IMG/VR virus record: IMGVR_UViG_3300032167_000006 | Reading direction: 5' to 3' (one strand) | DNA: 64,000 bases | Source of the DNA: a virus | Lineage: Duplodnaviria; Caudoviricetes | In this document: positions 547 through 19,870 of the stretch, in pieces | How the letters are laid out: every line of letters starts with the position of its first letter | How positions within the stretch are numbered: the stretch's first letter is position 1 | The notes under the pieces: generated by a model | Told to the model about the DNA's origin: nothing | Databases searched by the model: none | Seen by the model: the letters and a program-made list of their open reading frames with translations, nothing else | Made by a program: the position numbers and the translations under genes

Positions 547-783
547 ATGAAAAAAATAAAAGTCCGTATGAGCCAAAAACATGACACCGAAGCTAATTGG
601 TTAAAGGTGCCTACATTTATCCCTTCAGATGGAGAACTAATAATATACGACCCAGATGATAAAAATAAATATCCAAGAATGAAAGTTGGAGATAATAAGA
701 CTACTATAGTAAATCTTCCATTTATATCTGGTGCGGGTGAAATACTCTATAATGAAGATGGCGAAAAAATATTTCTAATGTAA
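547..783 (+). CDS. Small tail-fibre N-terminal-type adaptor (Mtd_N/hyaluronidase-N-like)
   Basis: QKHDTEANW...FIP..GELIIYD...RMKVGD.KT....LPF; paralogue of 1373..1681; RBS AAGGAGG. Confidence 0.65.
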   Translation: MKKIKVRMSQKHDTEANWLKVPTFIPSDGELIIYDPDDKNKYPRMKVGDNKTTIVNLPFISGAGEILYNEDGEKIFLM

Positions 784-852
784 TATTATTAGATGTATTT
801 ATATGGGATTTATATTTTAATAAATTTTATTCGCCTAGAAAGATATAAATTC

Positions 853-876
853 CCCTGTGAGAGCAATCTCACAGGG
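853..876. terminator. Hairpin between convergent genes, GCAA tetraloop
   Basis: ccctgtgaga-gcaa-tctcacaggg. Confidence 0.7.
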
Positions 877-884
877 ATTAATAT

Positions 885-1280
885 TTACTTTAATTCAGAA
901 TATAAATCTATTAGGATTTCTTTAAATCCATTAGCATATACAGTAATTTTTGGTTCAATATAAACGCTATAATCGTTTATTTCAATTATTTTTTTCATTG
1001 AGCTAAATATAGTGTATGAATTAGAGTTGTTATTATTTATAATATTATAACAAATAATATTTAAATTATTATCATCATCTACTTTATATTCTATTCTTGT
1101 CTCTTTTTCATCATAATCAAATTTTATATTAATTACTATATCAGTATTTAACTCATAAGAGTCTTGTAATGTAATTATAAATTTTGATTCTCTATCATTT
1201 CTAACTACTGCACTTTTTGATAAAATTTTTTTATATTTGTTATCTACGATAACATCACATGATATAGAAGTATGTTCCAT
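885..1280 (-). CDS. Hypothetical protein
   Basis: 131-aa ORF with RBS AAGGAGA; the only minus-strand gene inside the fibre cluster. Confidence 0.65.
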   Translation of the reverse strand: MEHTSISCDVIVDNKYKKILSKSAVVRNDRESKFIITLQDSYELNTDIVINIKFDYDEKETRIEYKVDDDNNLNIICYNIINNNNSNSYTIFSSMKKIIEINDYSVYIEPKITVYANGFKEILIDLYSELK

Positions 1281-1372
1281 ATTAAATATCTCCTTAAAAT
1301 TATTTTATCTTAAAGTATGTAATATTTTAAAAATTAATAAATAAAAATTCCTAAAAAGGAGGGATATAAATT

Positions 1373-1681
1373 ATGGCTGAAAAAACTATTAAAAGTAGAT
1401 CAATACAAAAGCATGATATTGAAGCTAATTGGATCAAAGCCACTAATTTTATACCTAAACAAGGCGAAATTATTGTTTATGATATTGAAGTAGACGCTAA
1501 TGGCAATAATTTGACTTTGCCATCTGGTAGAACTACTCCTTATACATATGAACGTTTTAAAATTGGTGATGGTAAAACTCTTGTAAGTTCATTACCTTTT
1601 GTTATGGAAAGTATCTCAGATGCTGAAATAGATGCTATTTGTGGTGCAACTATTTATGCAGCTAGCGAGGTGATCTTATAA
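1373..1681 (+). CDS. Small tail-fibre N-terminal-type adaptor (Mtd_N/hyaluronidase-N-like)
   Basis: QKHDIEANW..FIP..GEIIVYD...RFKIGDGKT..SLPF plus ISDAEIDAI tail; TAATG stop/start overlap with the next gene. Confidence 0.65.
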   Translation: MAEKTIKSRSIQKHDIEANWIKATNFIPKQGEIIVYDIEVDANGNNLTLPSGRTTPYTYERFKIGDGKTLVSSLPFVMESISDAEIDAICGATIYAASEVIL

Positions 1682-3945
1682 TGAGTGAATACGTTTTAAC
1701 GCCTCTATCTACTTTAAAAACAGTTGCAAATACTGTTAAAGAAATTGTCGGAGTTGATGAAATTCCGTTAACCAAGATTGACCAGACAGTTGCATCTGCT
1801 GTTACTAAACCACCAGAAATTTCTGTAAATTCATCTAATGGTTTAATTACAGCTACTGCTGGATCATCATCTACATATCAACTTGCATTTCAACCTGCTA
1901 AAACTATTACACCTGCAGCAACATCACAAACTGCTGTATCTTCTGGTTATTATACTGGTGGCGCAGTTACTGTTGAAGGTGATAGTAATTTAATTGCTGA
2001 TAATATTAAAAGTGGTGTTAGTATATTTGGTGTTAATGGAACTTATGAAGGTAGTGGTGGAGGTACGAACTCGGCAGATGAATTCATTACAAAAACTATA
2101 ACAAGTTATAGTGGCAATGTTTCTTATGTTGCCAGTCAAGCATTCTACGGTTGTACTAATCTTACAACGATAAATATGCCATATTGTACCGAAATTAGAA
2201 GTAATGCATTTCAATATTGTACAAAACTTACAGATATAAGCATACCAGTTTGTACTTCAATTGGCGGCGGAGCATTTTATCAGTGTTTAAATCTTACAAC
2301 TGTAAGTTTTCCGGCATGTACTTTGATTGGATATAGTGCATTTGCTTCTTGTTCAAATCTTACAACTATAAATCTTCCAACATGTAGGACAATTAGTGGT
2401 TATGCATTTGCTTCTTGTTCAAATCTTACTAATGTAAGTTTACCAGTTTGTACTAATATTAGTAATAATGCATTTCAATATTGTAAAAGTTTAACAGTAA
2501 TAGATTTGCCTAATTGCGAACATTTTGATTCTCGTGCATTTTTAGGTTGTACTGGTTTAACTAGTATAAGCATACCAGTTGCCCGTGGTTTTGGATATAG
2601 TGCATTTCAAGGTTGTACAGGTTTAACAAGTATAAATCTACCTGCTTGTACAGGTTTAACTAAGTATGTATTTATGAATTGTACAAACCTTTCAACAATA
2701 AATATGCCTAATTGTACAGTAATATGGGATTATGCATTTTCTTCTTGTTTAGCTCTTACTAGTATGCATTTTAAAAAATATATAGGCATATGTTCTAATG
2801 CATTTTTAAATTGCGCTAATCTATCTCAAATATACTTAGAACATTCAACAATATGTGGCTTATCTAATTCAAATGCGTTTACAAATACTATGATTACATC
2901 CACTACAGGTTCAATATTTGTACCACCATTATTAGTAGATACATATAAATCTGCAACAAACTGGGCGTATTTTTCAAATATAATATTTGTTATGCATGGA
3001 TTATATGACATAACTGAGAATACAATTTTAGTTAATAATACTAAAAACTTCACTATAACTACTGTATTTGATAGTATTCCAACGAATATTTCTATTACAC
3101 CTTTAACTAATGAGTGTATATCTATATCTAATATACAAGCAAATACATCTAATATTACTTTTGATATAACATCTTATAATATTGAAGGAGAAGTAGAAAT
3201 TGAAGTATGTGCTACTGAAAATGAAGAAATTTATAAAGATATTTTTACTATACAAATATTTAATCCTATTGGTAATTTAAATGAAAAAATAAATCCAAAT
3301 TCTACTAAAATAATTAATATACCATTAAATTGTAATGGCATTACTCCAGATGATGTAAGTGTTATTTCAAATGATAATAGCTTACTTACAATATCTGATA
3401 TTGTATACGATGCAGAAAATATTACTTTCCATATAACTTCTTATAATACAAAGGTGGGCGACAATATAGGAATTGATGTGTCTATTGTTTACAATGGTCG
3501 TATTTATAATAAAGCACTAACAATAGCAGCAGTGAATGAACCATATTATTTTATTGAAGATTTAGGTGATACTTATGGATTTATTATGAATTCTAATGGA
3601 TATTATGTAAGTAATAATAAAGGAATTTCTAGATCTTACGCATTATGCAAGCTAAAAATTTTCGCTCCATATGATTGTACAATGTATCTTGATTGCATTA
3701 ATTCAGGAGAAAATGATTATGATTATGGTATATTATCTAATCTTAATACCGAGTTATCATCATCACATTCAGCAGACAGTACTTCAAATGTTTATAAATC
3801 ATTTAAAGGTTTATCAAGCACAAGTATACAGACAATATCTTATGCAATACCTGCTGGCGAACATTTTATTTATATAAAATTTATAAAAGACGGTAGTGGT
3901 AATAATAACTATGATTCATTACAATTTAAAGTAAGATTTGAATAA
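1681..3945 (+). CDS. BspA-type leucine-rich-repeat (LRR_5) fibre/adhesin protein
   Basis: About ten 22-aa repeats AFxxCxxLTxIxLPxCTxI capped by IFVP..VDTYKSATNW; N-terminal KTITP...VSSGYY..G.VTV.GD fibre motif; C-terminal beta-rich domains. Confidence 0.8.
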   Translation: MSEYVLTPLSTLKTVANTVKEIVGVDEIPLTKIDQTVASAVTKPPEISVNSSNGLITATAGSSSTYQLAFQPAKTITPAATSQTAVSSGYYTGGAVTVEGDSNLIADNIKSGVSIFGVNGTYEGSGGGTNSADEFITKTITSYSGNVSYVASQAFYGCTNLTTINMPYCTEIRSNAFQYCTKLTDISIPVCTSIGGGAFYQCLNLTTVSFPACTLIGYSAFASCSNLTTINLPTCRTISGYAFASCSNLTNVSLPVCTNISNNAFQYCKSLTVIDLPNCEHFDSRAFLGCTGLTSISIPVARGFGYSAFQGCTGLTSINLPACTGLTKYVFMNCTNLSTINMPNCTVIWDYAFSSCLALTSMHFKKYIGICSNAFLNCANLSQIYLEHSTICGLSNSNAFTNTMITSTTGSIFVPPLLVDTYKSATNWAYFSNIIFVMHGLYDITENTILVNNTKNFTITTVFDSIPTNISITPLTNECISISNIQANTSNITFDITSYNIEGEVEIEVCATENEEIYKDIFTIQIFNPIGNLNEKINPNSTKIINIPLNCNGITPDDVSVISNDNSLLTISDIVYDAENITFHITSYNTKVGDNIGIDVSIVYNGRIYNKALTIAAVNEPYYFIEDLGDTYGFIMNSNGYYVSNNKGISRSYALCKLKIFAPYDCTMYLDCINSGENDYDYGILSNLNTELSSSHSADSTSNVYKSFKGLSSTSIQTISYAIPAGEHFIYIKFIKDGSGNNNYDSLQFKVRFE

Positions 3946-3983
3946 ATTACTGTTTTAAAACGGAACAAAAGGAGAAAACAAAA

Positions 3984-4964
3984 ATGAAATTACAAATATT
4001 AATCCCTCAATATAAAGAGACAGAAGATATAATCAAATCTCTTCTCGATAGTATTGAGGTTCAACAAAATATAGATTTAAAAAATGATATTGGCGTTATT
4101 ATCGTCAATGATGGCACCGATATTCATCTTAGCCAAGAATTCTTTAAAAGATACTCATTTCCAATAGAGTATCATCTTAACGAGCATAAAGGTGTTTCAG
4201 CAACTCGTAATGCTTGTCTTGACCATGCAACAGCAGATTATGTTATGTTCTGTGATGCTGATGATATGTTCTACAATGCTTGTGGAATGTATATCATATT
4301 CCGTGAAATAGACAATGGTGGCTTTGATAGTTTAGTATCTGCTTTTATTGAAGAGTCACGCATTCCAGAAACAAAAGAGGTAGTATATATTAATCACGAT
4401 ATGGATTCTACCTTTGTTCATGGTAAGGTTCATCGTAGACAATATCTTATTGATAATAATATTAGATGGAATGATAATCTTACAATTCACGAAGACAGTT
4501 ATTTCAACTGCCTATGCCAACGCTTGGCACGAGAATTAAAATACTCTCAAACATCATTCTATCTTTGGAAATGGCGTGATGCTTCAGTATGTCGCCATGA
4601 CCCCAAGTATATTTTAAAAACTTACAATAATATGCTTGATAGTAACGATGCTTTGGTCGAACAGTTCCTAAATCGTCGCAGAAAAGAAGATGCTATGTTT
4701 TATGCAGTCGGCATGATTTATGATGCTTATTTTACTATGAATAAAGATGAGTGGTTAAATCAAGAGAATAAAGATTATCGCTATGCTACAGAAAAACGCT
4801 TTAAAGAATATTGGTTGAAATATAAAACCTTGCACGATGAAATTCCTAAAGATGTAAAAACACAGATTATTATGGGAATTAAAAATCGTATGTATGGTGA
4901 AGGTATGGTATTAGAAACACTTACCTTTAATGAATGGATTAAACAAGTGGAGGCAATGGTATGA
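3984..4964 (+). CDS. Glycosyltransferase family 2 (GT-A fold)
   Basis: ILIPQYK, IIVNDG, GVSATRN, YVMFCDADD (DxD), HGKVHRR, HED. Confidence 0.9.
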   Translation: MKLQILIPQYKETEDIIKSLLDSIEVQQNIDLKNDIGVIIVNDGTDIHLSQEFFKRYSFPIEYHLNEHKGVSATRNACLDHATADYVMFCDADDMFYNACGMYIIFREIDNGGFDSLVSAFIEESRIPETKEVVYINHDMDSTFVHGKVHRRQYLIDNNIRWNDNLTIHEDSYFNCLCQRLARELKYSQTSFYLWKWRDASVCRHDPKYILKTYNNMLDSNDALVEQFLNRRRKEDAMFYAVGMIYDAYFTMNKDEWLNQENKDYRYATEKRFKEYWLKYKTLHDEIPKDVKTQIIMGIKNRMYGEGMVLETLTFNEWIKQVEAMV

Positions 4965-5194
4965 TAATAACTGAATCTTTAAATGATGGCGCTTTAATTA
5001 AACACTATAGTGATTCTGGATTTATGCTATTACAGAATGAAACTGGGGTAAAATATTCAGATCCTATAGATATTGTTCCTTGTCCTTATACATATACAGA
5101 AACAAATGAAAAAGTAGAATCTGAAGAAATAACAGATTCTAATGAAGAAATCACCGGTGATGAATTTCTTGATATGATTAAGGAGGTATTATAA
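4961..5194 (+). CDS. Small acidic phage protein
   Basis: HYSDSGFMLLQNETGVKYSDPID..PCPYTYTET; ATGA overlap with the GT gene and TAATG overlap with the next gene. Confidence 0.7.
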   Translation: MIITESLNDGALIKHYSDSGFMLLQNETGVKYSDPIDIVPCPYTYTETNEKVESEEITDSNEEITGDEFLDMIKEVL

Positions 5195-5586
5195 TGAAAA
5201 GAAGTGAAGCTAGAGCTTTTATAGATTCTTTAATTAATTTAAGAACCTCTGCAACAGATGCACAAGCTACTAATGCGCCTGCTGTATATCCTGAGTGGAA
5301 AACAGAAGTTGAGTATGCTGTTAATGATAGAGTTTTATATAATGATATTTTATATAAAGTTATTACTGCACATACTTCACAAGAAACTTGGACACCTGAT
5401 ACAGCAGTTAGTTTATTTGCAAAAGTTCTTATTCCTAATAATAATATTACTCCTGCATGGGAACAGCCTAATAGCACCAATCCTTATATGAATGGGGATA
5501 AAGTTACTCACAAAGATAAGACTTGGGTTTCTACAATAGATAACAATGTTTGGGAACCAGGTGTTTATGGCTGGAAAGAAGTATAA
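5194..5586 (+). CDS. CBM5/12 (chitin-binding-like) carbohydrate-binding protein
   Basis: Two repeats PEW....Y..ND.V.YN..LYK....HTS and PAW....Y..GDKVTH....W.S....NVWEPG...W. Confidence 0.75.
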   Translation: MKRSEARAFIDSLINLRTSATDAQATNAPAVYPEWKTEVEYAVNDRVLYNDILYKVITAHTSQETWTPDTAVSLFAKVLIPNNNITPAWEQPNSTNPYMNGDKVTHKDKTWVSTIDNNVWEPGVYGWKEV

Positions 5587-5631
5587 ATTTTAAATATAAT
5601 TCATCTTTAAATAAAGGAGGAATTAAAAAAT

Positions 5632-5826
5632 ATGTCTTTTTTAAATAAACAAGGCGTAGAACGACTATGGCAACATATAATTCTTAAACTTGGAAATAAA
5701 GTAGATAAAGTTGAAGGTAAGGGTTTATCTACAGAAGACTTTACTACAGAAGAAAAAACTAAATTAAGTAACCTCACTGAAGGCCAAATAAAAACAATAG
5801 ATGGTCAATCAGTATTTTTAATGTGA
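5632..5826 (+). CDS. Small fibre adaptor protein
   Basis: FLNKQGVERLW and KVDKVEGKGLSTEDFTTEEKTKL (shared with 5861..6736); RBS AAGGAGG. Confidence 0.65.
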   Translation: MSFLNKQGVERLWQHIILKLGNKVDKVEGKGLSTEDFTTEEKTKLSNLTEGQIKTIDGQSVFLM

Positions 5827-5860: not shown

Positions 5861-6736
5861 ATGGGACAACATAGAGTCGTATTGGCAAAGCAAATTAATG
5901 GACAGATAGAATATCTGTATCCAAAAACTTATGCCGATCAAATTATATTTAGCGATACAGATACAACAACTGTTAAAACTAAAATAGATGGTATTTTAGG
6001 TAATATTGCTAATCTTATCACTGCTGATACCAATATGCAAAAAGCTATTGATGAAAAAGTAGATAAGATTACTGGTAAGGGTTTATCTACTAACGATTAT
6101 ACAAATGATGAAAAAACTAAATTAGCTGGTATAGCAGCTGGAGCTAATAAAACTGTAGTAGATACAGAATTAAAATCAGATTCTACAAACCCTGTACAGA
6201 ATAAAGTAATAGCTGCAGCAATTGCTGAATTAGCTGATGATCCTGATGTTTATGTACAGAATGATGAACCTACAGATGCTGAAGATGGTTCTATCTGGAT
6301 TGATTTAGATGGTGAAGAATCTATAGGTTTAAATAATAAAATCGATATGCCTACAGATGAAACTGGCACTATATTAAAAGGTAGTGAGGGTCAAGTATTA
6401 CAGGCTAATGGCGATGGTACAACTTCATGGGTTGATTATGTGCCTGCAGCAGTAGCTACAATAGACCTTAAAGGTGGTATAGATAACTGGACAGAATATC
6501 CTGTAGAAGGTTCAACTGCAACTCGTTACGGTCAGGTAGTTACAGTAAAAAATGCTACAATCACTCCAAATAGCTCAGTTGATTTACGTATCGACTCTGA
6601 GCAAGTAGCAATCTTTCATGAAAAATGTCTTGCTTTTGTTGCTGAAAATGAAGATGGAATAGTTACAGTATTTTGTGTTGGTCAAATTCCTCAAAATGAT
6701 TACACTATCCAAGTTAAAGTTACTGAAGTGGCATAA
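5861..6736 (+). CDS. Fibre/appendage protein
   Basis: LYPKTYADQI, KVDK.TGKGLSTNDYT..EK.KL, VDTEL..DSTNPVQNKVI, YVQNDEP..AEDGSIWID: motifs typical of phage fibre proteins. Confidence 0.7.
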   Translation: MGQHRVVLAKQINGQIEYLYPKTYADQIIFSDTDTTTVKTKIDGILGNIANLITADTNMQKAIDEKVDKITGKGLSTNDYTNDEKTKLAGIAAGANKTVVDTELKSDSTNPVQNKVIAAAIAELADDPDVYVQNDEPTDAEDGSIWIDLDGEESIGLNNKIDMPTDETGTILKGSEGQVLQANGDGTTSWVDYVPAAVATIDLKGGIDNWTEYPVEGSTATRYGQVVTVKNATITPNSSVDLRIDSEQVAIFHEKCLAFVAENEDGIVTVFCVGQIPQNDYTIQVKVTEVA

Positions 6737-6754: not shown

Positions 6755-7006
6755 ATGGCTATTTTAAAAGTAAAAAATAATGGTGCATGGGATAATATAT
6801 TAGGAGTAGATACCTCCAATTTTGCAACTAAAATTCCAAAGTCTGCAGATAATAACGAACTTGATTTAAAAGATGTATATGATAAAATCCCAGTCATAGC
6901 ACAAAATACTGTTAATCAAGCAGTATCAAATAGCACTTTTAGACTTAAGATCACTTATGATGACGGTACAGTTAAGCAGATTAAAGTGTTAGGAGCTGAA
7001 GTATAA
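6755..7006 (+). CDS. Small fibre adaptor protein
   Basis: N-terminus MAILKVK resembles 16496; C-terminus LKITYDDGT...EV* resembles 12130; RBS AGGAGG. Confidence 0.65.
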   Translation: MAILKVKNNGAWDNILGVDTSNFATKIPKSADNNELDLKDVYDKIPVIAQNTVNQAVSNSTFRLKITYDDGTVKQIKVLGAEV

Positions 7007-7842
7007 TGGCTGAAATTACTAATTTCGAAATTGTTGGTTCTAATAAATCAATAGCTAAAGTTGAAGCTTCTTTAGATAATGGTAGAACTTATGGAACTAT
7101 TTGGGAAGCTGTTCAGCATACTTATACTTTGGTCCCAACAGAAGCAACTGATGTAAATGGTGATGGAACACAATATGCTTTAGAATATACTGCTACTGTT
7201 GAAAATATTGATAACTACTGGAATATTTATACACCTTTTGTTTTATATGAAGATGGTGTGGAAGTAGATACTAGTGATCTAGAACTTGAAGTAGAAGGTA
7301 AATTACCAATTATTCATCCAGATGGTTATTCAAATTATTTCGGTTATGTACCACCGGTAGGTGAATCGTATGTGTATGATGATATGTATTATATCGAAAT
7401 TGAATACAAAGGCAAAACTATCAGATCCAATCCAATACAGATACAAATAAATGCTCCAATTGAGCTCTTATCAAGAGACGTATCTATTATTGGTAGTAGT
7501 ATAAACTTAGAATATGATAGCTATGGATATGTATCTGAAACTTATGTAACACATGTAGCTACATATGAAAACATAGATTCTGATATGGAAATTTATTTCA
7601 AAGGAACAGAAGATGAAAATATGGATGGTATAACCATTGAAGATAGTGATGGTCATACTAGTATTCAGAGATGCTATCCATACGAATATATATCAGATAC
7701 AGAATGCAAATGGAAACTTTTATTAAAGCATGATGGTTATTATGAAGGAACAGATTCTGTTAGCCGTGAAATAATTGTAAATATCCCATCATCTTCAACT
7801 TATAAATCAGTTACATTAATTATTAATGAATCTATATATTAA
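7006..7842 (+). CDS. Acidic beta-rich putative appendage protein
   Basis: 278-aa ORF, translationally coupled (TAATG) to 6755..7006. Confidence 0.6.
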   Translation: MAEITNFEIVGSNKSIAKVEASLDNGRTYGTIWEAVQHTYTLVPTEATDVNGDGTQYALEYTATVENIDNYWNIYTPFVLYEDGVEVDTSDLELEVEGKLPIIHPDGYSNYFGYVPPVGESYVYDDMYYIEIEYKGKTIRSNPIQIQINAPIELLSRDVSIIGSSINLEYDSYGYVSETYVTHVATYENIDSDMEIYFKGTEDENMDGITIEDSDGHTSIQRCYPYEYISDTECKWKLLLKHDGYYEGTDSVSREIIVNIPSSSTYKSVTLIINESIY

Positions 7843-7875: not shown

Positions 7876-8712
7876 ATGGCTAAGATTATTGGTAATATAG
7901 TCGGTGTTCCTAACCCTATATCTGACTGGAATGAAACCGACGAGAATAAAGCAAGTTTTATTAAAAACAAACCGAATCTTAATTATTCAAATAGCGATCC
8001 TCTGCTTAAAGATGTCGGAGGAATTTTAGCAAATAATCATAAAGATGGATTTGATAATGTACCGATTAGTGATCTTATAACAGAATTATTATACCCATAT
8101 ACAAAACCTGTTATTAATTCATTCTCTTTAAATCCTGCTGACGGTGCTAAAGAAAAGAATGTTTCGTTAACTGTTAAATCAGCTACAGTTAAAGTAACCA
8201 AAAAGACTAAAGCAATTCAGTCAGTCAGTTTATATAAAGGCACTGCATTAGTAGAGACCAAAACTGATACTATAACTTCAGCTGGAACTACTCTTACATT
8301 TAATATCAATGAAACATTGAATGGTACGGCTGATTCAGTTTCATATACAGTAAAAGTATTAGAGGCCGGAGAAACTACTCCTGCTGTAACATCTACAAAA
8401 ACTTATAATTTTGTATATCCATATTTATATGGAGTTGTTGCAAATGGAGCTTCAATTACTGCGGATCTTATATCAAAATTTACAGCAAAAGGTATTCGTG
8501 TTAAAGGTAATCATTCTTATGAATATACTACAAATAACACTTGTCCTGTAATTGCATATCCTAAATCATATGGTACATTAAGCTCAATTATAGATCCAAA
8601 TAACTTTACACAAGATTGGGCACAACACATCGTTACAATTTCTGGTGTAGAATATTATGTATACGTTGGTGGCGCTGCCACTGCAACTGCCGCATATACA
8701 TTTAATTATTAA
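7876..8712 (+). CDS. Fibre-associated Ig-like protein
   Basis: SDWNETD...FIKNKP linker, LLYPY.KP.I.SF motif, C-terminal IAYPKSYG.L; partly similar to 30806..31690. Confidence 0.65.
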   Translation: MAKIIGNIVGVPNPISDWNETDENKASFIKNKPNLNYSNSDPLLKDVGGILANNHKDGFDNVPISDLITELLYPYTKPVINSFSLNPADGAKEKNVSLTVKSATVKVTKKTKAIQSVSLYKGTALVETKTDTITSAGTTLTFNINETLNGTADSVSYTVKVLEAGETTPAVTSTKTYNFVYPYLYGVVANGASITADLISKFTAKGIRVKGNHSYEYTTNNTCPVIAYPKSYGTLSSIIDPNNFTQDWAQHIVTISGVEYYVYVGGAATATAAYTFNY

Positions 8713-9199: not shown

Positions 9200-9219
9200 T
9201 TTTTTAAGGAGAAACAAAA

Positions 9220-10804: not shown

Positions 10805-12115
10805 ATGGCAAACAACAACTTAATTACAGTTGATGTTTTGACTTCAGTATTAAGTGCTTATAAAGAGTCATTATCTAATAATGACTCTTTATATACAATC
10901 GTTGAACCTCAGGACGATGATGTTCCTATGGTGTTTATTACTGGTTCTATTCCCACATCAAAAACATATGTAAATGGTGAGATAGAATACATCTCCAAAA
11001 CATCAACTTTTAAAGCATATACAAAAATTAGACTTCAAGGAAGTTCTACTTTATCTCTTCCTAAGAAAAATTATACTATTAAATTATTTAGTGATAATAA
11101 TCGTAGTAAATCTTTAAATAAAGATTTTAGAGATTGGGGAGCTAATGATACATTCACACTCAAGGCAGATTATAATGATATTCTCCATGCAAGAAATGTT
11201 GTAAGTTCTAGACTTTGGGGTAAAGTGGTAGCTAGTAGAAGTGATTATGATTCGCTTCCTGAAGGATTAAAAAATAGCCCTAATAATGGAGCTGTTAATG
11301 GTTTTCCTGTAAAGGTTTATATTAACGGCGAATATATTGGATTATATAATTTTGTAACTCATAAAGATGCAAAATTATTTGGTATGAATGAAAATAATCC
11401 TAATCATGCCGTACTTCAAGCTGAATTTAATGATAATGGTAACAGTTCGGTGCAAAATAATCCATGCAATTTTAATACTAATTGGGATGGTACAGATAAA
11501 TACTGGAGTATAGAAGTTGGTAATGATGCAGCATATATTAAAGATAGATTTTATGAATTATATGAAAATGTGCATGGTGCCTATATAAATAATACTCCTG
11601 ACGCCATTACAAGAAGTATAGATAAGCAGAGCTTGATAGATTATTATATCTTTCAGGATGTAATTTTAGGAACAGACGGTTTAGCTAAAAATATGCTTAT
11701 AGTTACTTATGATTTAGATAAATGGTTTTTAAGTGCTTATGACTTAGATTCTACTTTTGATTTATCTTGGGAAGGAAAATTACTTAATTCTGCTAAAGTG
11801 GCATTATATGATAGTAATGTTATAAGAGATCCGTATTTAAATCATTATAGCATTCTTCCTAGAATTATTGGTAGATATTATTTTGAAGAATATGTAGAGA
11901 GATATATTGAACTCAGACAATCTGTATTAAGTGACTCTTCAATAATACAAGAATTTGAGAATTGCATCAATAATTATGGCGGAGAAGATGAGTATATTAA
12001 AGATACTATAGCTAATCCTAATATTCCTTTAGTTACTACAAATACTTTACAGTATTTAAGAACCTTTATTAAAGAACATCTTGCATATTTAGATTCTATA
12101 TATCTTAGTTATTAA
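10805..12115 (+). CDS. CotH-like atypical protein kinase
   Basis: QGSST...KKNY.IKL, LKADY.D..HARN, NGFPV.VYINGEY.GLY, DG.AKN, YDLD.TF. Confidence 0.75.
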   Translation: MANNNLITVDVLTSVLSAYKESLSNNDSLYTIVEPQDDDVPMVFITGSIPTSKTYVNGEIEYISKTSTFKAYTKIRLQGSSTLSLPKKNYTIKLFSDNNRSKSLNKDFRDWGANDTFTLKADYNDILHARNVVSSRLWGKVVASRSDYDSLPEGLKNSPNNGAVNGFPVKVYINGEYIGLYNFVTHKDAKLFGMNENNPNHAVLQAEFNDNGNSSVQNNPCNFNTNWDGTDKYWSIEVGNDAAYIKDRFYELYENVHGAYINNTPDAITRSIDKQSLIDYYIFQDVILGTDGLAKNMLIVTYDLDKWFLSAYDLDSTFDLSWEGKLLNSAKVALYDSNVIRDPYLNHYSILPRIIGRYYFEEYVERYIELRQSVLSDSSIIQEFENCINNYGGEDEYIKDTIANPNIPLVTTNTLQYLRTFIKEHLAYLDSIYLSY

Positions 12116-12129: not shown

Positions 12130-14673
12130 ATGGCTAAATATATTAAAACAGAAGAAGGATATAAGCTAGCCAGTGATTTTATTGGATCTGGCGGCGGTAT
12201 CAAAGAGATTGAATCTGTAAATGATATTACTGATGTAGGTATTTATAAAACTGACAAAGAAGTATATTCTGCTAGTTATGATAAAATAGAATCGTACGTC
12301 CCAGTAGCAAAGGGTTTAACCACAAAGGTTGGATTTAAGATTGAAACATATCCATCATCCTCAACTAGTAATTATATACAGCTTAGAGATTCAAAGTTGG
12401 GTACGGCATGGATTGAAGTAGATGCTAACGGTATCTATATTACTGGAACTACGACATATAACGACGAGGATATGCATTATAGTGTATCAAGCAATAGTGA
12501 GATAACACTTGATTCTACTCCTGTGGATGTTGATGGTGTAATTTATCCATCACTTAAATCTTTAGGTATAATATATTTTGAAGTCATCGATATAACGATG
12601 GAAACAGATGCAGTAGTGCATATGTATGCAACCTCTACGTATTCTGATAGTCTTACTATTAATGAGATTAGAGGTGGTATGGGAATCGAAGGCGACAATT
12701 ATAATTCTGAAATATTCAATGATCATTCAGAAGGAGCAGCCTTTGGCTCTTATGCACATTCAGAGGGTAGAACAACTCAGGCTGGCGCAAGAGCTTTTAG
12801 AGTACAATCTATTGATTATTCCACCAGAACATTTACACTTGATAGCACATCAGGATTGAAAAAAGATATGTATTGGTCTGCTCAAATCTATAATGGTGCA
12901 ACAGCATTAAATGTTAATAGATACAGCAAGATTGAATCTATAAGTGGTAATACTGTTACGGTTGTATCAATGCCTGATAATTTTAATACAACTATTGTAC
13001 CAATAGATGAGGTGCTTGATGGATTTGATAATGAAAATAATATTTTCTTCACTCCAGATAATCCTAAATTGGGAACACGTAATATAGGTTCTGCAGCACA
13101 TTCTGAAGGTAGAAATACAGTAGCAGCTAGAAAAAATGCCCATGCGGAGGGTAATAAGTCAAAAGCCCTTGGACACTCTTCTCATGCTGAAAATACAAGT
13201 ACAGTTTATGGTACTTATGCTCATGGTGAAGGTTCAAGTTATGTATATGGAAACTATGCTCACGGTGAAGGTGTAGATACATATGCTGTTGGTGAAGCAT
13301 CTCATGCTCAAGGAAGAAAAAACATTGCATATAGCTATGACTGCTATGCAGGTGGAGGAAGTTCTGTTGGGTACACACACTTATTAAACAAGGGTCTTAA
13401 TCCAACAGATAAAGATTCATGGACACAATTATGGACTAACGAAGAGCGTGATAGTTTAGAATTATTTAATGCAGCAGTAGGAAATAACTCATTTACTCAA
13501 GGTTCAAATAACTTAGTAACTGGTTTACGTGGTTCAGCCTTAGGTAAACAAAATCATGTTAGCGGTCAGGATGCAGTGGCAGTAGGTAGTTACAATACTG
13601 CAGCTGGTATGCATTCAGGTGCATTTGGTTATTCAAATGAAGTTAATACTGGTGAGTCTTTTGTAATAGGCCACTCTAATATTGTTAAATCGCCTTACAG
13701 ATCTATTGCGATTGGTAATGGTAATGAACTTGTTTCGGCTACAACAGAAGGTACTATTATTCTTGGTCGTTATGGTTCAGACGTAGAACATCCTGAAGCT
13801 ATTTTTCTTATAGGTAATGGTACTGCATCTAAGAAATCTAGTATTTTTGGTATTACTTCTAATAATGGTTTATTTCATGGTCCTGCTACTATAGTTACAG
13901 GACAATATTCTGGTGCATTAGGTTATACCAATAACGTTACAGGTGCACAAGCGTTTGCTATAGGTCATACTAATATAGTAGATCAGCATAAGGGTATTGC
14001 ATTAGGTTTAGGTAATACATTATCTAATGTTGCAGGTGATGTTAGTAGAGCTGTTGTGGGTTATTATAATGATGATACTAACAAACCTTTATTTGCAGTT
14101 GGTAATGGTACTATCACCAAAGATAAAGAAACAGGTGAAATAACTAAATATAATCGTAGTAATGCTTTAGAATTAACTACCGCTGGAGAATTAAAAATTT
14201 CACGTTTGAATTCTGGTACTCATAGCACTAATACTGTATCAGGTACTGGAGTTGGTGTTATTGGCGCAAAAAACAATGTATCTAAAAATTACAGCACTGC
14301 AATAGGATACAATAATAAAATAACCGCAGGAGATACTCATTTTGTAGTTGGACACACAAATCAAATTGTAGCTGGATATAAACACGTAGCTCTTGGATTA
14401 GGAAATAAAATTGGTAACAAGGGAGCCGGAGTACAGGGTAGAGTTGCTGTTGGTCATTGGAATGATGATACTAATCAACCTATATTTGCAGTAGGTAATG
14501 GTACAGGTACTATTGATGTTAATGGCGAAATTACCAGCGAAAATCGCAGTAATGCCTTTGCAGTATTTGATGATGGTACCATTAAAGCTCATAAAAATGC
14601 TACAGTAGATTTAGAAATAACTTATACAGATGGAACAAAATCCACATACCATTTAGTGAAGTCGGAGGTGTAA
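12130..14673 (+). CDS. Receptor-binding fibre with YadA-head-like beta-roll repeats
   Basis: Repeats AHSEG/AHGEG and about 14-aa A[IL]G..N.V units; FAVGNG...RSNA neck motifs. Confidence 0.75.
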   Translation: MAKYIKTEEGYKLASDFIGSGGGIKEIESVNDITDVGIYKTDKEVYSASYDKIESYVPVAKGLTTKVGFKIETYPSSSTSNYIQLRDSKLGTAWIEVDANGIYITGTTTYNDEDMHYSVSSNSEITLDSTPVDVDGVIYPSLKSLGIIYFEVIDITMETDAVVHMYATSTYSDSLTINEIRGGMGIEGDNYNSEIFNDHSEGAAFGSYAHSEGRTTQAGARAFRVQSIDYSTRTFTLDSTSGLKKDMYWSAQIYNGATALNVNRYSKIESISGNTVTVVSMPDNFNTTIVPIDEVLDGFDNENNIFFTPDNPKLGTRNIGSAAHSEGRNTVAARKNAHAEGNKSKALGHSSHAENTSTVYGTYAHGEGSSYVYGNYAHGEGVDTYAVGEASHAQGRKNIAYSYDCYAGGGSSVGYTHLLNKGLNPTDKDSWTQLWTNEERDSLELFNAAVGNNSFTQGSNNLVTGLRGSALGKQNHVSGQDAVAVGSYNTAAGMHSGAFGYSNEVNTGESFVIGHSNIVKSPYRSIAIGNGNELVSATTEGTIILGRYGSDVEHPEAIFLIGNGTASKKSSIFGITSNNGLFHGPATIVTGQYSGALGYTNNVTGAQAFAIGHTNIVDQHKGIALGLGNTLSNVAGDVSRAVVGYYNDDTNKPLFAVGNGTITKDKETGEITKYNRSNALELTTAGELKISRLNSGTHSTNTVSGTGVGVIGAKNNVSKNYSTAIGYNNKITAGDTHFVVGHTNQIVAGYKHVALGLGNKIGNKGAGVQGRVAVGHWNDDTNQPIFAVGNGTGTIDVNGEITSENRSNAFAVFDDGTIKAHKNATVDLEITYTDGTKSTYHLVKSEV

Positions 14674-14679: not shown

Positions 14680-16419
14680 ATGGCGCATGCTTATCCTAAG
14701 AGTTATCTAGAATATGGTACGAGCACCACTTTCATGCCAGACGATAGTTATGACTATATTGATTTTAAAATTGAAATTGATGATTTTTCATATAATTGTG
14801 GAAGCGGTAGTGGTGGTACTATTTATGTAACACCTAATGTTTATGTAGAAGAACTTGGTAGTGGAATTTGTATTAATAATTTTAATTCTAAAAGAGAGCA
14901 AACGGTAATAAATTTTACAGCTTATCGTAATGGATCACATCTAAAGTCTATGACGATAACTCTGGCTGCAAATCCAGATGGTTATTTAGATGAAGACTTT
15001 TCTTTATATGATACAAGTATAGATTATTTAAATACTAAAAGTATTTTTTATTTAAATAATACAGATATTTCTTTAAGTAAATTAGAAATTAAATTTGTTG
15101 ATAGATTTACTAATGTATTAAGCAGCGGAAATGGTGTAATATATGAAGATGAAGACTTTACTGTTGAAAATGCAACTGGAAAGACTTTAGAAGTTACTAA
15201 TAGAAATGAATCAACTCAAGATAAAAATATAACTGTAGAGCTTTATTATTATAGTGACAATGGTAAAATTCTAATAAATACAGCGACTTTAACATTGTCT
15301 GCTAATCAAAGTGGTAATGAACCATCAAATCCTTCTGATCCGTCAGATCCTTCTAACATATCAAGTGTTTTATTTGGTGGTAAAGATTTAACTAACGCAT
15401 TATCTTTAAAACTTAATAATAAATCTGTAGCTAGTATTAAATTAGGCGGAGTTGTAATTTGGCCTTTAGTAAATACCAATTATGTAGCATCATTTTATAA
15501 AATAGAAACATATGGTGCTTCTAGTTCATATAATGAAACTACTAAAACTCTGTCACTTATATATGGAGAATCAACTATTAAAATTTATTTCAGTGGTAAC
15601 TTACCAGAATATAATAGCATAAATTCAATATCGGATTTCTGTACAATTACTGCTTCGCCTTCTAATTTACTTAATCATATTGAATTTATACCTGAAGAAA
15701 CCAATTGTTATAATATTTTAAATTATAATACTACTATAGATGATATATCTGGTACTTTATATTTCAACTTCAATCATCCAGATTACGAACCAAATATTTT
15801 AAGTTTAAATATAGTTGCAAAAGCAAGAACCCTAGTTAAAATATCTAAACCTACTTTAACCCGCTCAGATATATTTGAATACACAGGAAGCGTTATAAAT
15901 ATTGCCGATTATTATTCTGAAGAGGTTAAGAATACAGTGGATATAACTGGAAGATGTGAAGGAACCAGTCCAGGCGGTTATACTTACTATATAACACCAA
16001 AGGATGGTTATTGTTGGGAAGATGGTAGTACATCCCCAATAACGCAGTCTTTTGTAATACAAGAACCACATTATAATTATACTTTAACCTACGTACTTAA
16101 TGATAACAGTGCAGACTTCTATTGGGATACTAATGATCCAAATCCTGGAACACCAGAAATATCAGCTTCCTTAGTAAGTGATTTTGATGTTTGGGATATA
16201 GGCTCAGCTGATATACAAGTTAATGGAAACTATGTAATGGCTTACAAATCAAGTGATGCTTGGGTGGAAGATGATTATGGTTCAGGCGCTTTAGATACTC
16301 CAAGCGGTCATTATAATACAGATCCAATGTATAATGTAGGAATTGAAGTGCGTGCAACTGATCCGAATGGAGGATCTCATGCAGAAACTATCTATTTAAC
16401 TGCATATAGCACAAGATAG
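14680..16419 (+). CDS. Beta-rich putative appendage protein
   Basis: 579 aa, PSNPSDPSDPS linker, internal NKSVASIKLGGVVIW motif, Ig-like C-terminal part. Confidence 0.6.
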   Translation: MAHAYPKSYLEYGTSTTFMPDDSYDYIDFKIEIDDFSYNCGSGSGGTIYVTPNVYVEELGSGICINNFNSKREQTVINFTAYRNGSHLKSMTITLAANPDGYLDEDFSLYDTSIDYLNTKSIFYLNNTDISLSKLEIKFVDRFTNVLSSGNGVIYEDEDFTVENATGKTLEVTNRNESTQDKNITVELYYYSDNGKILINTATLTLSANQSGNEPSNPSDPSDPSNISSVLFGGKDLTNALSLKLNNKSVASIKLGGVVIWPLVNTNYVASFYKIETYGASSSYNETTKTLSLIYGESTIKIYFSGNLPEYNSINSISDFCTITASPSNLLNHIEFIPEETNCYNILNYNTTIDDISGTLYFNFNHPDYEPNILSLNIVAKARTLVKISKPTLTRSDIFEYTGSVINIADYYSEEVKNTVDITGRCEGTSPGGYTYYITPKDGYCWEDGSTSPITQSFVIQEPHYNYTLTYVLNDNSADFYWDTNDPNPGTPEISASLVSDFDVWDIGSADIQVNGNYVMAYKSSDAWVEDDYGSGALDTPSGHYNTDPMYNVGIEVRATDPNGGSHAETIYLTAYSTR

Positions 16420-16429
16420 ATTAATTAAT

Positions 16430-16464
16430 ATACTAAGATGGGTAATTTAAACCCATCTTAGTAT
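16430..16464. terminator. Hairpin, 14-bp stem, AATTTAA loop
   Basis: atactaagatgggt-aatttaa-acccatcttagtat after the stop at 16419. Confidence 0.65.
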
Positions 16465-16495
16465 TATAAAAATATATAAAGGAGGTCTTTATACA

Positions 16496-19400
16496 ATGGG
16501 AATATTAAAAGTTAAAGATAAAGATGGAAATATAGTAAATCTTCCTGCAATTGGTAGTTCTATTAGTCATAAATGGAATGGTACAAAATTAACAGTGACT
16601 TCTAGTAGTGGCACAACAACTACTGATCTTCAAGGCGCACCTGGTAAAAATGGTAATGATTATGTTATAACTAGTGCTGATAAAGAAGAAATAGCTGGTA
16701 TGGTTCAACGTTCGGTTGAAGAAGGAATTCCTAGTTATATTTTAGAATCAGCAGAAGATTTTGCTCATAAAGTACAAAGCAGACAAAGTGGAGATAGCTT
16801 TACTTTTGCGTTTTTAAGTGATGCACATATAACAAAAAGTAGACCATATACTATTACATCTGCTTTGCATGCAAAACAAGCTTTACAAATAATCAATAAG
16901 CGCATACCTTTAGATTTTATTATACATGGTGGCGATTATACTTGGGGAGAGGATTCCGAAGATAAAAATACAACCTATGATGATTTTGAATTATATCAAG
17001 AATTAATTGGTTCAGCCATACCAAATGTGCCAAATATTCATGTTATTGGTAATCATGATGATTTACCATATCAGCCAACAGGAAAAAGATTAACACAATC
17101 AGAAACTTTTGGTATTATCGGAAGAAAAAATTTATTAGCAAATGCCGTTTGTAATATGGGTAAAAACTATGGTTATGTAGATATAGATAATAGAAAAATA
17201 AGAATTATATATCTTGACACAGAAGATAAAAGATGTTTAAAAACCCCAGATGCTGCCAATGGAGAACATCCGGACAATAAATATTATTTTTTAAATATAC
17301 ATCATATATCTAAAGAACAGCTTGATTTTATAGCATCTAATGCATTAAATTTTGAAAGTAAGCTTCCTATTAAACCAGATGAAACAGATACAGAAGCAAC
17401 AAAAAAATGGGATGAAGAATGCAAAAAAGAATTAGATAAATGGAGCATACTTTTTGTTTCGCATTGGGGTATAAATGGCCATGGGTATGATTGGTGGAAA
17501 TATCCAAGAATTGGTACAAATGCAGATGGTAATCCTATATATGATGATTTTAGATGTAATATAGGTACAATCGGTAAAATGTTAGAAGCATATAAAAGAG
17601 GTAAAAGCTTTAAAGATGATATAGAACACATGAATGATGATGGTACATCTACATTAAAAAGTGCATCTTATGATTTTAGTGATAGAATTTATAGGGTACA
17701 AAATATTTTTGCCGCACATGGTGATTCACATAATATTGATCATGAATTAATAACAGGTGAAGTATTATCTATTGGTATTCCTAATGTTGTAAATGGTAGA
17801 GAAACTGTTAGTAGGGATGGAGTTAAATATACCAAAACTGCAGATACTGAAAATGGTACAGCATTTACTATTATTACTATAGATAGAGAAAATCAAAAAG
17901 TTTATGCTGATTGTTATGGCGCTGGCTATGATATGGAATTTAATAGTAATAGCATATTAGATATGGCCGGTATAATGAAAGATAAATATTTAGCATATCC
18001 ATGGAATGATGTAGTGCAAGAAGATGGATCAATTAAAAAAGTTACACGTGTTGATATATATGATAAACCAGGATATAAAACTACTAATTATATACCTTTC
18101 CAACCTGGTGATGTTTTAAGAATTAAAGGTATTTCTATTAAAGACGATCTTGATAGAATTAATTTTTATAAATCTTATAACACTGCAAGTGTTAATGCAC
18201 CAATATCGCATGTTACTGGACCAAATAGTTTAAAAAATCAGTTTTTTGAAGTAACTATTAGTGAGGATGGATATTCTTGCGAAATTCTATTATCAAATTC
18301 AGATAGTAGTTTTAAAAATAATGCACGCTATTTACGTATATGCTCTAGCGATATTAAAGATGATGCCATTATCACAATAAATAAAGAAATTACAGGATCT
18401 GAAGTTCCAGAAATTCCTGAAGACTCAACTACTGAAGAGCCTGAAAATCCTACTCCAGATGATACTAATACTATTTACTATACTACAGAAGGTATGCTTA
18501 GTAAGAGCAAAAATATTGGTTATATAAAGGGTTATTATTTAGGTGAAGGCGGTGGAGATGCTGATGCTCAATTAGCAATACCAGAAAATAATGCAACTTA
18601 TTATGTAACTGGTTTTATTCCTTGCGTACAAAATGATGTATTGAGAATTAAAGGTATTACTTTTGATGATGCTTTAGATAGAATAGCTTTATATGGTAAA
18701 GATACAGATGGTAATTATATACCACTAAAACGTAGTTCTGGAGAGTATGATGCTATTTTTGCTCTTAATAAAGATGAAAATGATAACTATATAGATAATG
18801 GATTATTTAACACTTATAGTATTACTCCAAACGTAGAGAATGATATTATTACTATTGCTTTTAATGCGCCTACAGATATAGCAGCTGTACGTATTTGTGC
18901 AAGTTTAATTAATAATAATTCTACCGTAACTATCAATGAAAATATTGGTATAACTTATTATACCGAAGAAGGTATACTCAGTAAGAGTAACAATATAGGT
19001 TATAAACAAGGATATAGATTAGTAGATACTAAAGCTGGAAACCCTGAAGATTATGTAGATACTAATTATTTTGTAACAGGCTATATTCCTGTATCAAAAG
19101 GTGATAGTATTGTAATCAAGGGCATTAGTTTTAGCTCAGCTAATGATAGACTTGTTTGTTATACAGAAGAAAATGGTACTTATACTCGTCTTACTAGAAC
19201 TTCAGATGGAAAAACTGTAGATGTTATTCTTCAGGCAAATGACTCTAATGGTATAGCAAGACACTTCGGTACAATGAAAACTGAAACTATTGACGGTGCT
19301 TCAGTTATAACTATACGCGTCACAGAAGGTAGCGAAGCTACTTCTAAGGGAGTAGAGTATATTCGTATTTGTTCATCAAGCATTAATAATACTTCTGTTA

Positions 19401-19870
19401 TTACAGTTGCCCAGCCTCCTGTTCTTTATACCAACGAAGGTATACTTAGTGAGAGCAATAATATTGGATATAAATATGGTTATACGTTAGTTAATACTAA
19501 AAATAATAGCAATGATGAAGATTATATAGATGATACTCATTATATAACAGGTTATATCCCTTGTGTGAAAGGTAATACTATAACACTCAAAAATATTAGT
19601 TTCAGTGAATCTAGTGAAAGAATAGTTTGTTATACAGAAGAAAATGGCGTTTATACTCGTCTTTCACGTAGTACTGAATCTGATGCTATTATTTACGCAA
19701 ATGATGATGGTGCTATAACAGGACATCTTGGTACTATTAGCAGAGATATAGATAATAATACTGTAACTATAAATGTTACAGGTGGTACAAATGGAACAAC
19801 TAATTCAGTAGAGTATATCCGTATCTGCTCAAAGGATATTAATGAAAATTCTATTATAACTATTAATTAA
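16496..19870 (+). CDS. Calcineurin-like metallophosphoesterase fused to a fibre-type N-terminus and four C-terminal repeats
   Basis: SDAH, GGDY, GNHD, VSH, HGDSH metal-binding motifs; repeats Y.EEGILS.S.NIGY...TGYIP...IKGI.F...IRICS. Confidence 0.8.
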   Translation: MGILKVKDKDGNIVNLPAIGSSISHKWNGTKLTVTSSSGTTTTDLQGAPGKNGNDYVITSADKEEIAGMVQRSVEEGIPSYILESAEDFAHKVQSRQSGDSFTFAFLSDAHITKSRPYTITSALHAKQALQIINKRIPLDFIIHGGDYTWGEDSEDKNTTYDDFELYQELIGSAIPNVPNIHVIGNHDDLPYQPTGKRLTQSETFGIIGRKNLLANAVCNMGKNYGYVDIDNRKIRIIYLDTEDKRCLKTPDAANGEHPDNKYYFLNIHHISKEQLDFIASNALNFESKLPIKPDETDTEATKKWDEECKKELDKWSILFVSHWGINGHGYDWWKYPRIGTNADGNPIYDDFRCNIGTIGKMLEAYKRGKSFKDDIEHMNDDGTSTLKSASYDFSDRIYRVQNIFAAHGDSHNIDHELITGEVLSIGIPNVVNGRETVSRDGVKYTKTADTENGTAFTIITIDRENQKVYADCYGAGYDMEFNSNSILDMAGIMKDKYLAYPWNDVVQEDGSIKKVTRVDIYDKPGYKTTNYIPFQPGDVLRIKGISIKDDLDRINFYKSYNTASVNAPISHVTGPNSLKNQFFEVTISEDGYSCEILLSNSDSSFKNNARYLRICSSDIKDDAIITINKEITGSEVPEIPEDSTTEEPENPTPDDTNTIYYTTEGMLSKSKNIGYIKGYYLGEGGGDADAQLAIPENNATYYVTGFIPCVQNDVLRIKGITFDDALDRIALYGKDTDGNYIPLKRSSGEYDAIFALNKDENDNYIDNGLFNTYSITPNVENDIITIAFNAPTDIAAVRICASLINNNSTVTINENIGITYYTEEGILSKSNNIGYKQGYRLVDTKAGNPEDYVDTNYFVTGYIPVSKGDSIVIKGISFSSANDRLVCYTEENGTYTRLTRTSDGKTVDVILQANDSNGIARHFGTMKTETIDGASVITIRVTEGSEATSKGVEYIRICSSSINNTSVITVAQPPVLYTNEGILSESNNIGYKYGYTLVNTKNNSNDEDYIDDTHYITGYIPCVKGNTITLKNISFSESSERIVCYTEENGVYTRLSRSTESDAIIYANDDGAITGHLGTISRDIDNNTVTINVTGGTNGTTNSVEYIRICSKDINENSIITIN

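Follow-up and report, generated by a model that had tools for sequence, protein, structure and literature searches.

A modular tail-fibre gene cluster in an uncultured jumbo phage and a proposed tail-to-head docking of neighbouring gene products

Introduction

The long tail fibre of phage T4 (gp34-gp35-gp36-gp37) is built from separate subunits joined end to end, with small connectors placed between long rods. Here, we describe a cluster for which a similar arrangement can be proposed, namely positions 547-19870 of a 64,000-nucleotide stretch (hereafter, the window) of the genome of an uncultured phage (Duplodnaviria; Caudoviricetes; IMG/VR record IMGVR_UViG_3300032167_000006). Neighbouring genes of this cluster, and of many other phages, carry families of C-terminal tails and N-terminal heads that co-occur across gene borders while the protein bodies vary, and we propose that the tails dock onto the heads. 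In T4, gene order equals subunit order, and the proposed docking would give the same order here; unlike in T4, subunits go down to 64-120 aa, several joint types occur side by side, and the parts recur in 30-260-kb phages of Bacillota and Bacteroidota. None of the cluster proteins matched the T4 fibre families (gp34/gp35/gp36/gp37) in Pfam or PHROG.

Three other described systems are close enough to merit comparison. Anchor-branch receptor-binding protein (RBP) systems with conserved N-terminal docking peptides are found in K1-5/SP6, G7C and the Klebsiella phages KP32, KP34, Menlow and PhiK64-1 (PMC6872550), and the attachment of this peptide to the branching domain has been validated experimentally (PMC13352976). 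The cluster resembles these systems in carrying short conserved N-terminal elements on otherwise unrelated RBPs with exchangeable cargo, but differs from them in that the partner would be the C-terminal tail of the preceding gene product, that the mini-adaptors are free-standing, and that the docking is inferred. A Pfam scan of all cluster protein sequences (E<=0.01) returned no T4_gp9_10-type family, the kind expected for the T4 gp10-like branching domain on which anchor-branch systems rely. In the Bordetella phage BPP-1, trimers of Mtd are located at the ends of the tail fibres (PMC2408619); the N-terminal domain of Mtd and of the streptococcal phage hyaluronidase HylP (6x3m, 2c3f) resembles one of the heads described below, which, unlike in Mtd and HylP, often makes up the whole protein except for a short tail, with neither a lectin nor a lyase body. 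Finally, the podophages GP4, VP1 and A1002 have chain-like fibres of many small subunits held on another protein by beta-sheet augmentation (PMC13730344). Small subunits joined to another protein would be a shared feature, but those of GP4, VP1 and A1002 are dimers threaded on a "rope" protein, show no sequence similarity to the proteins studied here, and no rope candidate was identified in the cluster. The T4 long tail fibre and the anchor-branch RBP systems already embody the principle of the arrangement.

Results

Tail-to-head joints across gene borders

Genes are named here by their first position in the window (Table 1), with a minus sign for genes upstream of it. The two best-supported joints, judged by comparison across phages, are neither of them among the pairs listed in a first-pass annotation of the window, which had proposed a plug-and-socket code from motifs shared between otherwise unrelated neighbours. 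For the first joint, 80 viral loci were obtained in a scan with the head of the 5632 family. This head (M..[YFW]L[DN]..G[LV]..[LF]W.K[IL]K; YLD head) was N-terminal in 126 of 127 hidden Markov model (HMM) matches, and the tail ([IL][TS]N.[ED][IL][DE]..[LI].. followed by the stop codon; ITNxEID tail) was C-terminal in 98 of 103. A gene with this tail was directly followed by a gene with a YLD head in 86/98 cases, most exceptions having degenerate heads, and adjacent open reading frame (ORF) pairs comprised 103 with both tail and head, 34 with the tail only, 32 with the head only, and 2519 with neither. The same junction connects at least nine unrelated upstream and at least 11 unrelated downstream body clusters, and the tail gene and the head gene either overlap or are separated by very short gaps (-4 to about 30 nt). 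Third-codon identity across the junction is only 0.33-0.42 and more than 50% of the conserved residues use different codons; hence, it is the protein sequence that is under selection, and a DNA-level linker as the explanation of the junction is ruled out. No fused ("Rosetta stone") tail-head form was found among these loci, the apparent internal heads being start-codon miscalls. The pattern was repeated in prophages of Oscillospiraceae, Lachnospiraceae, Fumia and Bacteroides.

The second joint links a GG tail ([LIV][LIV][FLD][DNF][GC]G.A.. followed by the stop codon, as in ..LILDGGxA) to an Mtd_N/HylP-like head. Four such junctions occur in the genome that contains the window, and the same five-gene chain is present in phages of 56-66 kb (L078/L084/L085). 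An Mtd_N-like head followed 27 of 46 non-redundant GG tails under the strict pattern, with several of the misses carrying the head by eye, while just 0.9% of all ORFs have this head. That is, the first-pass expectation that motif pairs co-occur in adjacent genes while the bodies vary was borne out in many phages, if mainly by joints that it had not named.

Module families and mini-proteins

Three kinds of modules can be distinguished in the cluster from the protein sequences: shaft modules, N-terminal heads and C-terminal tails, and three of the motifs reported earlier belong to module families that are widespread outside the phage of the window. The shaft modules, KVDK..GKGLS.ND.T..EK.KL and DWNETD..FIKNKP, are mainly internal and often lie at recombination boundaries. 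The former can be found in genes annotated as tail fibre in Pseudomonas, Clostridium, Bacillus, crAss-like and archaeal viruses, and was internal in 53 of 80 occurrences (prophage loci); a full-text literature search for the GKGLS motif found no phage paper. The latter was detected in >117 viral contigs; of 54 complete ORFs, 49 carry it internally, and a protein can have as many as three copies. The heads comprise the Mtd_N/HylP-like domain, the "YLD..GL..LW.KIK" helix, "YPKT.AD", "PLD" and "M.ILKVK..G.W"; at least four of these families have two to five paralogues each and are strictly N-terminal in other phages. The tails are the "ITNxEIDxIL" helix, "LILDGGxA", "..DG..[IV]FLM" and a 50-aa domain ending in "..ITY.DGT..EV". 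The "YPKT.AD" head of gene 5861 is shared with gene 30806 and two upstream genes; an alignment of this head (A4) was too diverse for scanning, and a smaller alignment retrieved only six loci.

The Mtd_N-like head is found on genes 547 and 1373 and on three upstream genes. In Pfam, Mtd_N (PF18454) matched 1373 at 16.7 bits, under the gathering cut-off of 26.3, and did not match 547. Several close homologues (P0026, P0028, P0029, P0033 and P0034) have precomputed PF18454 annotations, and an HMM profile of the head matched PDB entries 6x3m (E 1.1e-4) and 2c3f (E 0.12). Because its homologues carry PF18454 and its profile matches HylP structures, kinship of the head to Mtd_N is likely, but distant. 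An AlphaFold2 (AF2) model of 1373, of moderate confidence (predicted local distance difference test, pLDDT, 66), shows a helical tail, with a helix at residues 83-90, and a disordered stretch of the last eight residues; in Foldseek, HylP was its top match, but with an E-value of about 1. PDB sequence searches with 5861, 7876 and a head profile (A1) gave nothing usable, and the "Pizza" structures that matched a second profile (A2) were repeat artefacts.

The earlier description of tiny proteins made of few motifs holds well: proteins of 60-120 aa with two or three modules form a recurrent class, and their members keep one head while exchanging tails. In homologues of 5632 (64-110 aa), the "FLN..G.ERLW" start and the KVDK module are constant and the ends differ. 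Two of them, P0007 and P0008 (75-78% identical to 5632), preserve the FLM tail exactly, preceded by a variable linker; another ends with a DW.QTD..FIKNKP module followed by a tail that resembles that of 8729, and further ends also occur. Similarly, the head of 547 and 1373 is found on proteins of 79-125 aa with at least four tail types, including the type of 1373 ("..PVTEADIEEICGASI..EV.." at the C-terminus), and the 1373 class is conserved in P0029-P0035. We propose that the 60-120-aa mini-proteins of this phage (547, 1373, 5632 and two upstream genes of 91 and 119 aa) would serve as adaptors that convert one joint type into another.

Proposed wiring of the cluster

The GG joints suggest a chain that would run from -5542 through -5263, -4926, -3546 and -1121 to either 547 or 1373, and further links may connect 1373 to 5632, 8729 to 10017, 6755 to 7006, and 12130 to 14680. 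In this genome, 5632 has the only YLD-type head and 1373 the only clear ITNxEID tail (tail HMM, E 0.0011). On another contig, L324, homologues of -3546, -1121, 1373 and 5632 are consecutive, with a 1373-like adaptor directly before a 5632-like gene. Since these homologues are consecutive there, the segment 1681-5586 (leucine-rich repeat (LRR) protein, GT2, 77-aa gene and carbohydrate-binding protein) as well as 547 with the neighbouring minus-strand ORF seem to be insertions into the chain. For the FLM tails, one contig (L298) has a "..TIDANGVVSM" tail followed by a protein that starts with "MPVLKIKKTDGTW", a case that would pair both FLM tails (547 and 5632) with both ILKVK starts, while looser tails of the "DLYFLEITA" type precede YPKT heads in three large phages.

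Tests of the motifs within the genome

All eight motifs of the first-pass annotation are present in the translations of the genes that it named, and we assessed their similarity by all-against-all BLASTP within the window and by an in-register comparison of the ends of 240 predicted proteins of the genome against shuffles. Five pairs exceed chance: the Mtd_N-like pair 547/1373 (E 1.7e-17), the KVDK..GKGLS pair 5632/5861 (E 8.6e-11), the DWNETD..NKP pair 7876/10017 (E 1.5e-4), the pair 5861/30806 (E 8e-4), and the C-termini of 6755/12130 (E 0.033, or 3e-5 as a single pairwise comparison; C-terminal 20-mer score of 42 vs. a shuffle maximum of 41). The FLM ending, confined to 547 and 5632 in this genome, is borderline; it is the top C-terminal 8-mer pair with a score of 32, compared with a mean shuffle maximum of 25.8 and a top value of 33. 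The remaining two are at chance level within the genome: the M[AG]ILKVK start pair scored 23, under the mean shuffle maximum of 24.8, and NKS[IV]A is a 5-mer match of a kind that turns up in 74% of shuffles. Both have some support from outside the genome: three other phage proteins begin with M.[IV]LK[IV]K..G.W, and the 215-aa homologue of 14680 in a related phage (G002) begins with the NKS[IV]A motif (second high-scoring segment pair, E 0.003), which softens a reading of this motif as pure chance. Most of the listed items are better described as one domain common to two proteins than as the two sides of a plug and socket, and two are internal shaft modules. The statement that the motifs lie at or near protein ends does not hold in general for KVDK..GKGLS and DWNETD..NKP, which are mostly internal; others are strictly terminal.

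Comparison with related phages

The fibre region is hypervariable between relatives. In G001 (249 kb), the RNA polymerase is 75% identical and the upstream genes flanking the cluster are kept at 36-55%, whereas the fibre set is almost entirely different, with the head modules alone in common. On the reverse strand of G001 contig L001, at about 64.3 kb in the joined segment, a 339-aa ORF with a tyrosine-recombinase-like end ("..HSNIETTMIYAKTS..") lies among the fibre genes, a possible sign that the variable region of that phage contains an element that is integrated or can invert.

The second relative, G002 (93 kb, estimated 42% complete), shares a mosaic block (9067-10237) that consists of the last 44 codons of 8729, the entire GT2 gene and the first 73 codons of 10017, beginning seven residues before the 8729 tail and stopping just past the DWNETD..NKP module. 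The 8729 tail and the 10017 head are co-inherited with the GT2 gene in G002, while the upstream body and the body of 10017 differ; the G002 protein that ends like 8729 (65% identity over the last 37 aa of 8729) has 565 aa and is otherwise unrelated. Homology resumes over the CotH gene (10794-11726 vs. L296 7335-8267, 77% nt identity). The GT2 and CotH genes are 76-77% identical to those of G002 at the nucleotide level, with the fibre gene between them at 42% protein identity; this enzyme block inside a variable fibre cluster points to exchange or strong conservation.

A further pair, 12130 followed by 14680, recurs in G002 with a different upstream body, in line with the earlier proposal for these two genes. 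The upstream protein in G002 (531 aa; L339 1752-3344) has the 12130-type start "MAKYIKTEEGYK", a body like the end of 1681 (residues 629-751 of 1681 are 50% identical to its residues 53-175) and the C-terminal domain that 12130 shares with 6755, which we read from the alignments as clear domain shuffling between fibre genes. Its gene is followed by one for a 215-aa homologue of 14680 (E 5e-13 and 0.003), the N-terminus of which aligns with residues 232-263 of 14680, the site of the NKS[IV]A..IW motif. The gene for this homologue abuts a lysin gene and, for this reason, 16496 looks like a lineage-specific insertion; 16496 has no match in G001 and is absent from the gene order of G002. Finally, the G002 homologue of the giant gene 22934, which spans L340 from position 7070 onward into L296 2-2749, starts with an Mtd_N-like head and a coiled coil of about 500 aa, and comes after a GG-tailed gene; the giant of the window (22934-30760, 2608 aa) is without the Mtd_N-like head and stands apart from the chain.

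Genome context and gene features

The window is minus-strand sequence from one virus record of 258,973 bp and has a G+C content of ~30%. Region 547-19870 holds 19 tightly packed plus-strand genes and is the distal half of a tail-fibre/receptor-binding cluster of more than 30 genes in a jumbo phage; fibre-type genes continue upstream to about -20.5 kb in window coordinates, so that the cluster extends from about -20.5 to +19.9 kb, and five further proteins with Mtd_N-like or "YPKT" starts are encoded in these upstream ~20 kb. Pfam domains in the window include BspA-type LRR, two GT2, CBM5/12, CotH, YadA-head repeats and a calcineurin-like phosphoesterase, and there are PHROG tail and tail-fibre matches among the cluster proteins. 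Directly 3' of the cluster are genes for an M23 peptidase that carries three SLH domains and for a CW_7-repeat amidase. Proteins of these two kinds are typical lysins of phages of Gram-positive hosts. We consider the host to be Gram-positive and probably clostridial.

Table 1. Genes of region 547-19870 and the block shared with G002, in window coordinates
Position	Strand	Feature
547..783	+	78-aa mini-protein; Mtd_N/HylP-like head and tail DGEKIFLM
1373..1681	+	102-aa adaptor; Mtd_N/HylP-like head and helical tail ISDAEIDAIC..EVIL, ITNxEID type
1681..3945	+	754-aa BspA-type LRR protein; Pfam LRR_5 5.9e-47
3984..4964	+	GT2 glycosyltransferase; Pfam 2.5e-13; paralogue of 9220; no head or tail motif
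4961..5194	+	77-aa mini-protein; degenerate helical tail EEITGDEFLDMIKEVL at the end
5194..5586	+	130-aa CBM5/12 carbohydrate-binding protein; Pfam 9e-15
5632..5826	+	64-aa mini-protein; helical head FLN..GVERLW, KVDK-GKGLS shaft module, tail TIDGQSVFLM
5861..6736	+	291-aa fibre protein; YPKT.AD head, KVDK-GKGLS module, EP..G.IWID motif, tip domain ending ..YTIQVKVTEVA
6755..7006	+	83-aa protein; start MAILKVKNNGAW; C-terminal ~50-aa domain in common with 12130
7006..7842	+	278-aa beta-rich protein after 6755; weak kinship to 14680, E 0.012-0.024
7876..8712	+	278-aa fibre protein; DWNETD..FIKNKP module at residues 17-33
8729..9199	+	156-aa protein; PLD N-terminal head; extended tail ATDEDVLEIL..PV..DGKILT..G.IYTL
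9067..10237	+	Mosaic block; 76.5% nt identity to G002 (blastn), L296 5566-6743
9220..10017	+	GT2 glycosyltransferase; 77% identity to G002 homologue
10017..10784	+	255-aa fibre protein; head and DWNETD..NKP module conserved; body diverged (42% identity, G002)
10805..12115	+	CotH-family kinase-like protein; Pfam 1.3e-25; 75-76% identity in G002; no head or tail motif
12130..14673	+	847-aa fibre protein; YadA-head-like repeats; start MAKYIKTEEGYK; C-terminal domain ..LEITYTDGT..EV
14680..16419	+	579-aa beta-rich protein; homology of residues 232-476 to the 215-aa G002 protein over its full length
16496..19870	+	1124-aa protein; calcineurin-like phosphoesterase domain, Pfam 4.1e-6; start MGILKVKDKDG

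Gene 547 stands by itself between two hairpin terminators (431-458 and 853-876) and has a strong ribosome-binding site. A 131-aa minus-strand ORF (885-1280) with its own ribosome-binding site is wedged between the two Mtd_N-like mini-genes 547 and 1373; it and 547 have the bidirectional hairpin at 853-876 as their common terminator, and the ORF resembles a moron that was inserted there. The start of 1681, a candidate distal adhesin, overlaps the stop of 1373. The likeness of the 4961 tail to the ITNxEID-type family is by eye alone, the tail HMM not being significant. The CotH kinase profile (PF08757) matched 10805 over profile positions 1-322 with 91 bits against a Pfam cut-off of 23.8.

The tip domain of 5861 has homologues among the fibre tips of L298, L312 and L314. 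A conserved 65-aa gene (M.I.GN[ML]VG....GKTF..(E/V)DE(D/N)G.E), which may encode a tip chaperone or cap, is located at 3465-3662 of L298 and also occurs in L300 and L314, where it overlaps the stops of fibre-tip genes ending in "..TEV..V"; the position of 6755 after 5861 is equivalent. Genes 6755 and 7006 have no close relatives in the viral contigs or the phage collection searched, and 6755 has just three close, short homologues in ENA; HMMER matches of 6755 to giant repeat proteins had suggested one copy of a repeat unit, an idea that we rejected because the total score is an artefact of summing repeats that contribute no more than 2-6 bits each. A tblastn search with the N-terminus of 7876 against cultured phages gave no match.

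Discussion

The proteins of the cluster are mosaics, and the small modules that they combine are in circulation in gut phages and prophages; the first-pass idea of a modular fibre kit is supported. The fibre cluster is real and richly modular, and, on balance, we favor as fairly probable a tail-head docking between neighbours as its architecture. That is, the tail of one trimer would dock onto the head of a second trimer, in most cases the one encoded by the next gene, and the particle would then carry jointed or branched fibres made of many short subunits. The plug-and-socket idea is, accordingly worded, plausible and partly supported by the comparative evidence, mostly through pairs other than those first proposed. 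More tentatively, it is possible that gut phages of 30-260 kb (Bacillota, Bacteroidota) share at least four orthogonal tail-head joints, together with 60-120-aa "type-converter" adaptors that wire trimers into branched fibres, the joints of this phage being GG/Mtd_N-like, 1373/5632, 8729/10017, and 6755 or 12130 with 7006 or 14680; we would hold this broader version with some doubt.

Several observations weigh against docking as the architecture. Genes 1373 and 5632 are 4 kb apart here, with four genes between them, and the partner candidates of the FLM tail are split between one ILKVK case (L298) and about three looser YPKT cases. About half of the Mtd_N-like heads come after a large protein without a GG tail and, therefore, the heads may also bind other sites. 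An AF2 model of a natural read-through fusion of tail and head folded poorly (pLDDT of 49, predicted template modelling score (pTM) of 0.22) and was uninformative on docking, with both motifs predicted to be helical. Further, selection of the loci relied on a single member of every pair, and many loci are related to one another; counts such as 86/98 or 27/46 do not, therefore, represent independent events, and conserved synteny coupled to recombination at domain borders could yield the observed adjacency.

The last point leads to the alternative that survives best, plain mosaicism, which we nevertheless regard as unlikely. Under this hypothesis, the domains are simply shuffled, all heads attach to the same sockets on the baseplate or fibre, the tails serve to nucleate folding or trimerisation (similar to a foldon or a C-terminal chaperone-like segment), and the tail-head adjacency stems from gene blocks that are inherited and exchanged together at domain borders. 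The almost complete replacement of the fibre set in G001, the coincidence of the limits of the G002 homology block (9067 and 10237) with module borders, the internal and repeated KVDK and DWNETD modules, the Mtd_N-like heads that follow proteins without a GG tail, and the separation of 1373 from 5632 would all be consistent with it. Shuffling alone, however, does not readily account for the same junction on so many unrelated upstream and downstream bodies, for conservation at the protein level with nearly random third positions, or for heads and tails that are almost never internal, and a folding-nucleus role does not easily explain mini-proteins that have nothing but a head and an exchangeable tail.

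The full model of the first-pass annotation, i.e., a cellulosome-like branched appendage on which the docking code displays a kinase, a phosphoesterase, glycosyltransferases and adhesins, appears improbable. The CotH, GT2 and phosphoesterase genes do lie within the fibre operon, 16496 starts with MGILKVK as 6755 does, the G002 homologue of the giant has an Mtd_N-like head behind a GG tail, and the 22934 protein has a CotH-like region (BLAST vs. 10805). On the other hand, the enzymes have no link to the motifs except for this heptamer on 16496, which is at chance level in the genome: the GT2s and the CotH protein 10805 carry neither head nor tail, 16496 is missing from both relatives, and Pfam makes no CotH call in the giant of either phage. 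The analogy with a cellulosome also fails in that no cohesin or dockerin family was found by Pfam in any cluster protein. In addition, the GT2 and CotH genes are 75-77% identical to their G002 counterparts compared to 42% for the fibre gene between them, a pattern that fits accessory enzymes rather than variable cargo. Hence, the GT2 and CotH proteins are probably co-inherited accessory enzymes that act on the fibres or the host surface, as opposed to docked cargo. Lastly, heads and tails as signals for translation-order assembly or for a shared chaperone, instead of permanent structural joints, would agree with the very short or overlapping tail-head gene gaps (-4 to about 30 nt) and with a strictly N-terminal head that is the first part to emerge, but we found no candidate chaperone of matching distribution and the pairs outlast inserted genes (a GT2 gene sits between 8729 and 10017 in two phages), which makes this explanation highly improbable.

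For the window itself, the sober result is an annotated modular fibre cluster with two horizontally shared sub-blocks and GT2/CotH accessory enzymes that travel with fibre ends. If the docking proposed here is true, the novelty would lie in these specific joints, in mini-adaptors that are free-standing, and in how widely both occur in gut phages. If the joints are real, the complex fibre architecture of uncultured phages would become predictable from protein termini and gene order, many of the small "hypothetical" proteins encoded beside fibre genes would gain a role as adaptors, and the joints would provide natural break points for exchanging receptor-binding parts in laboratory phages.

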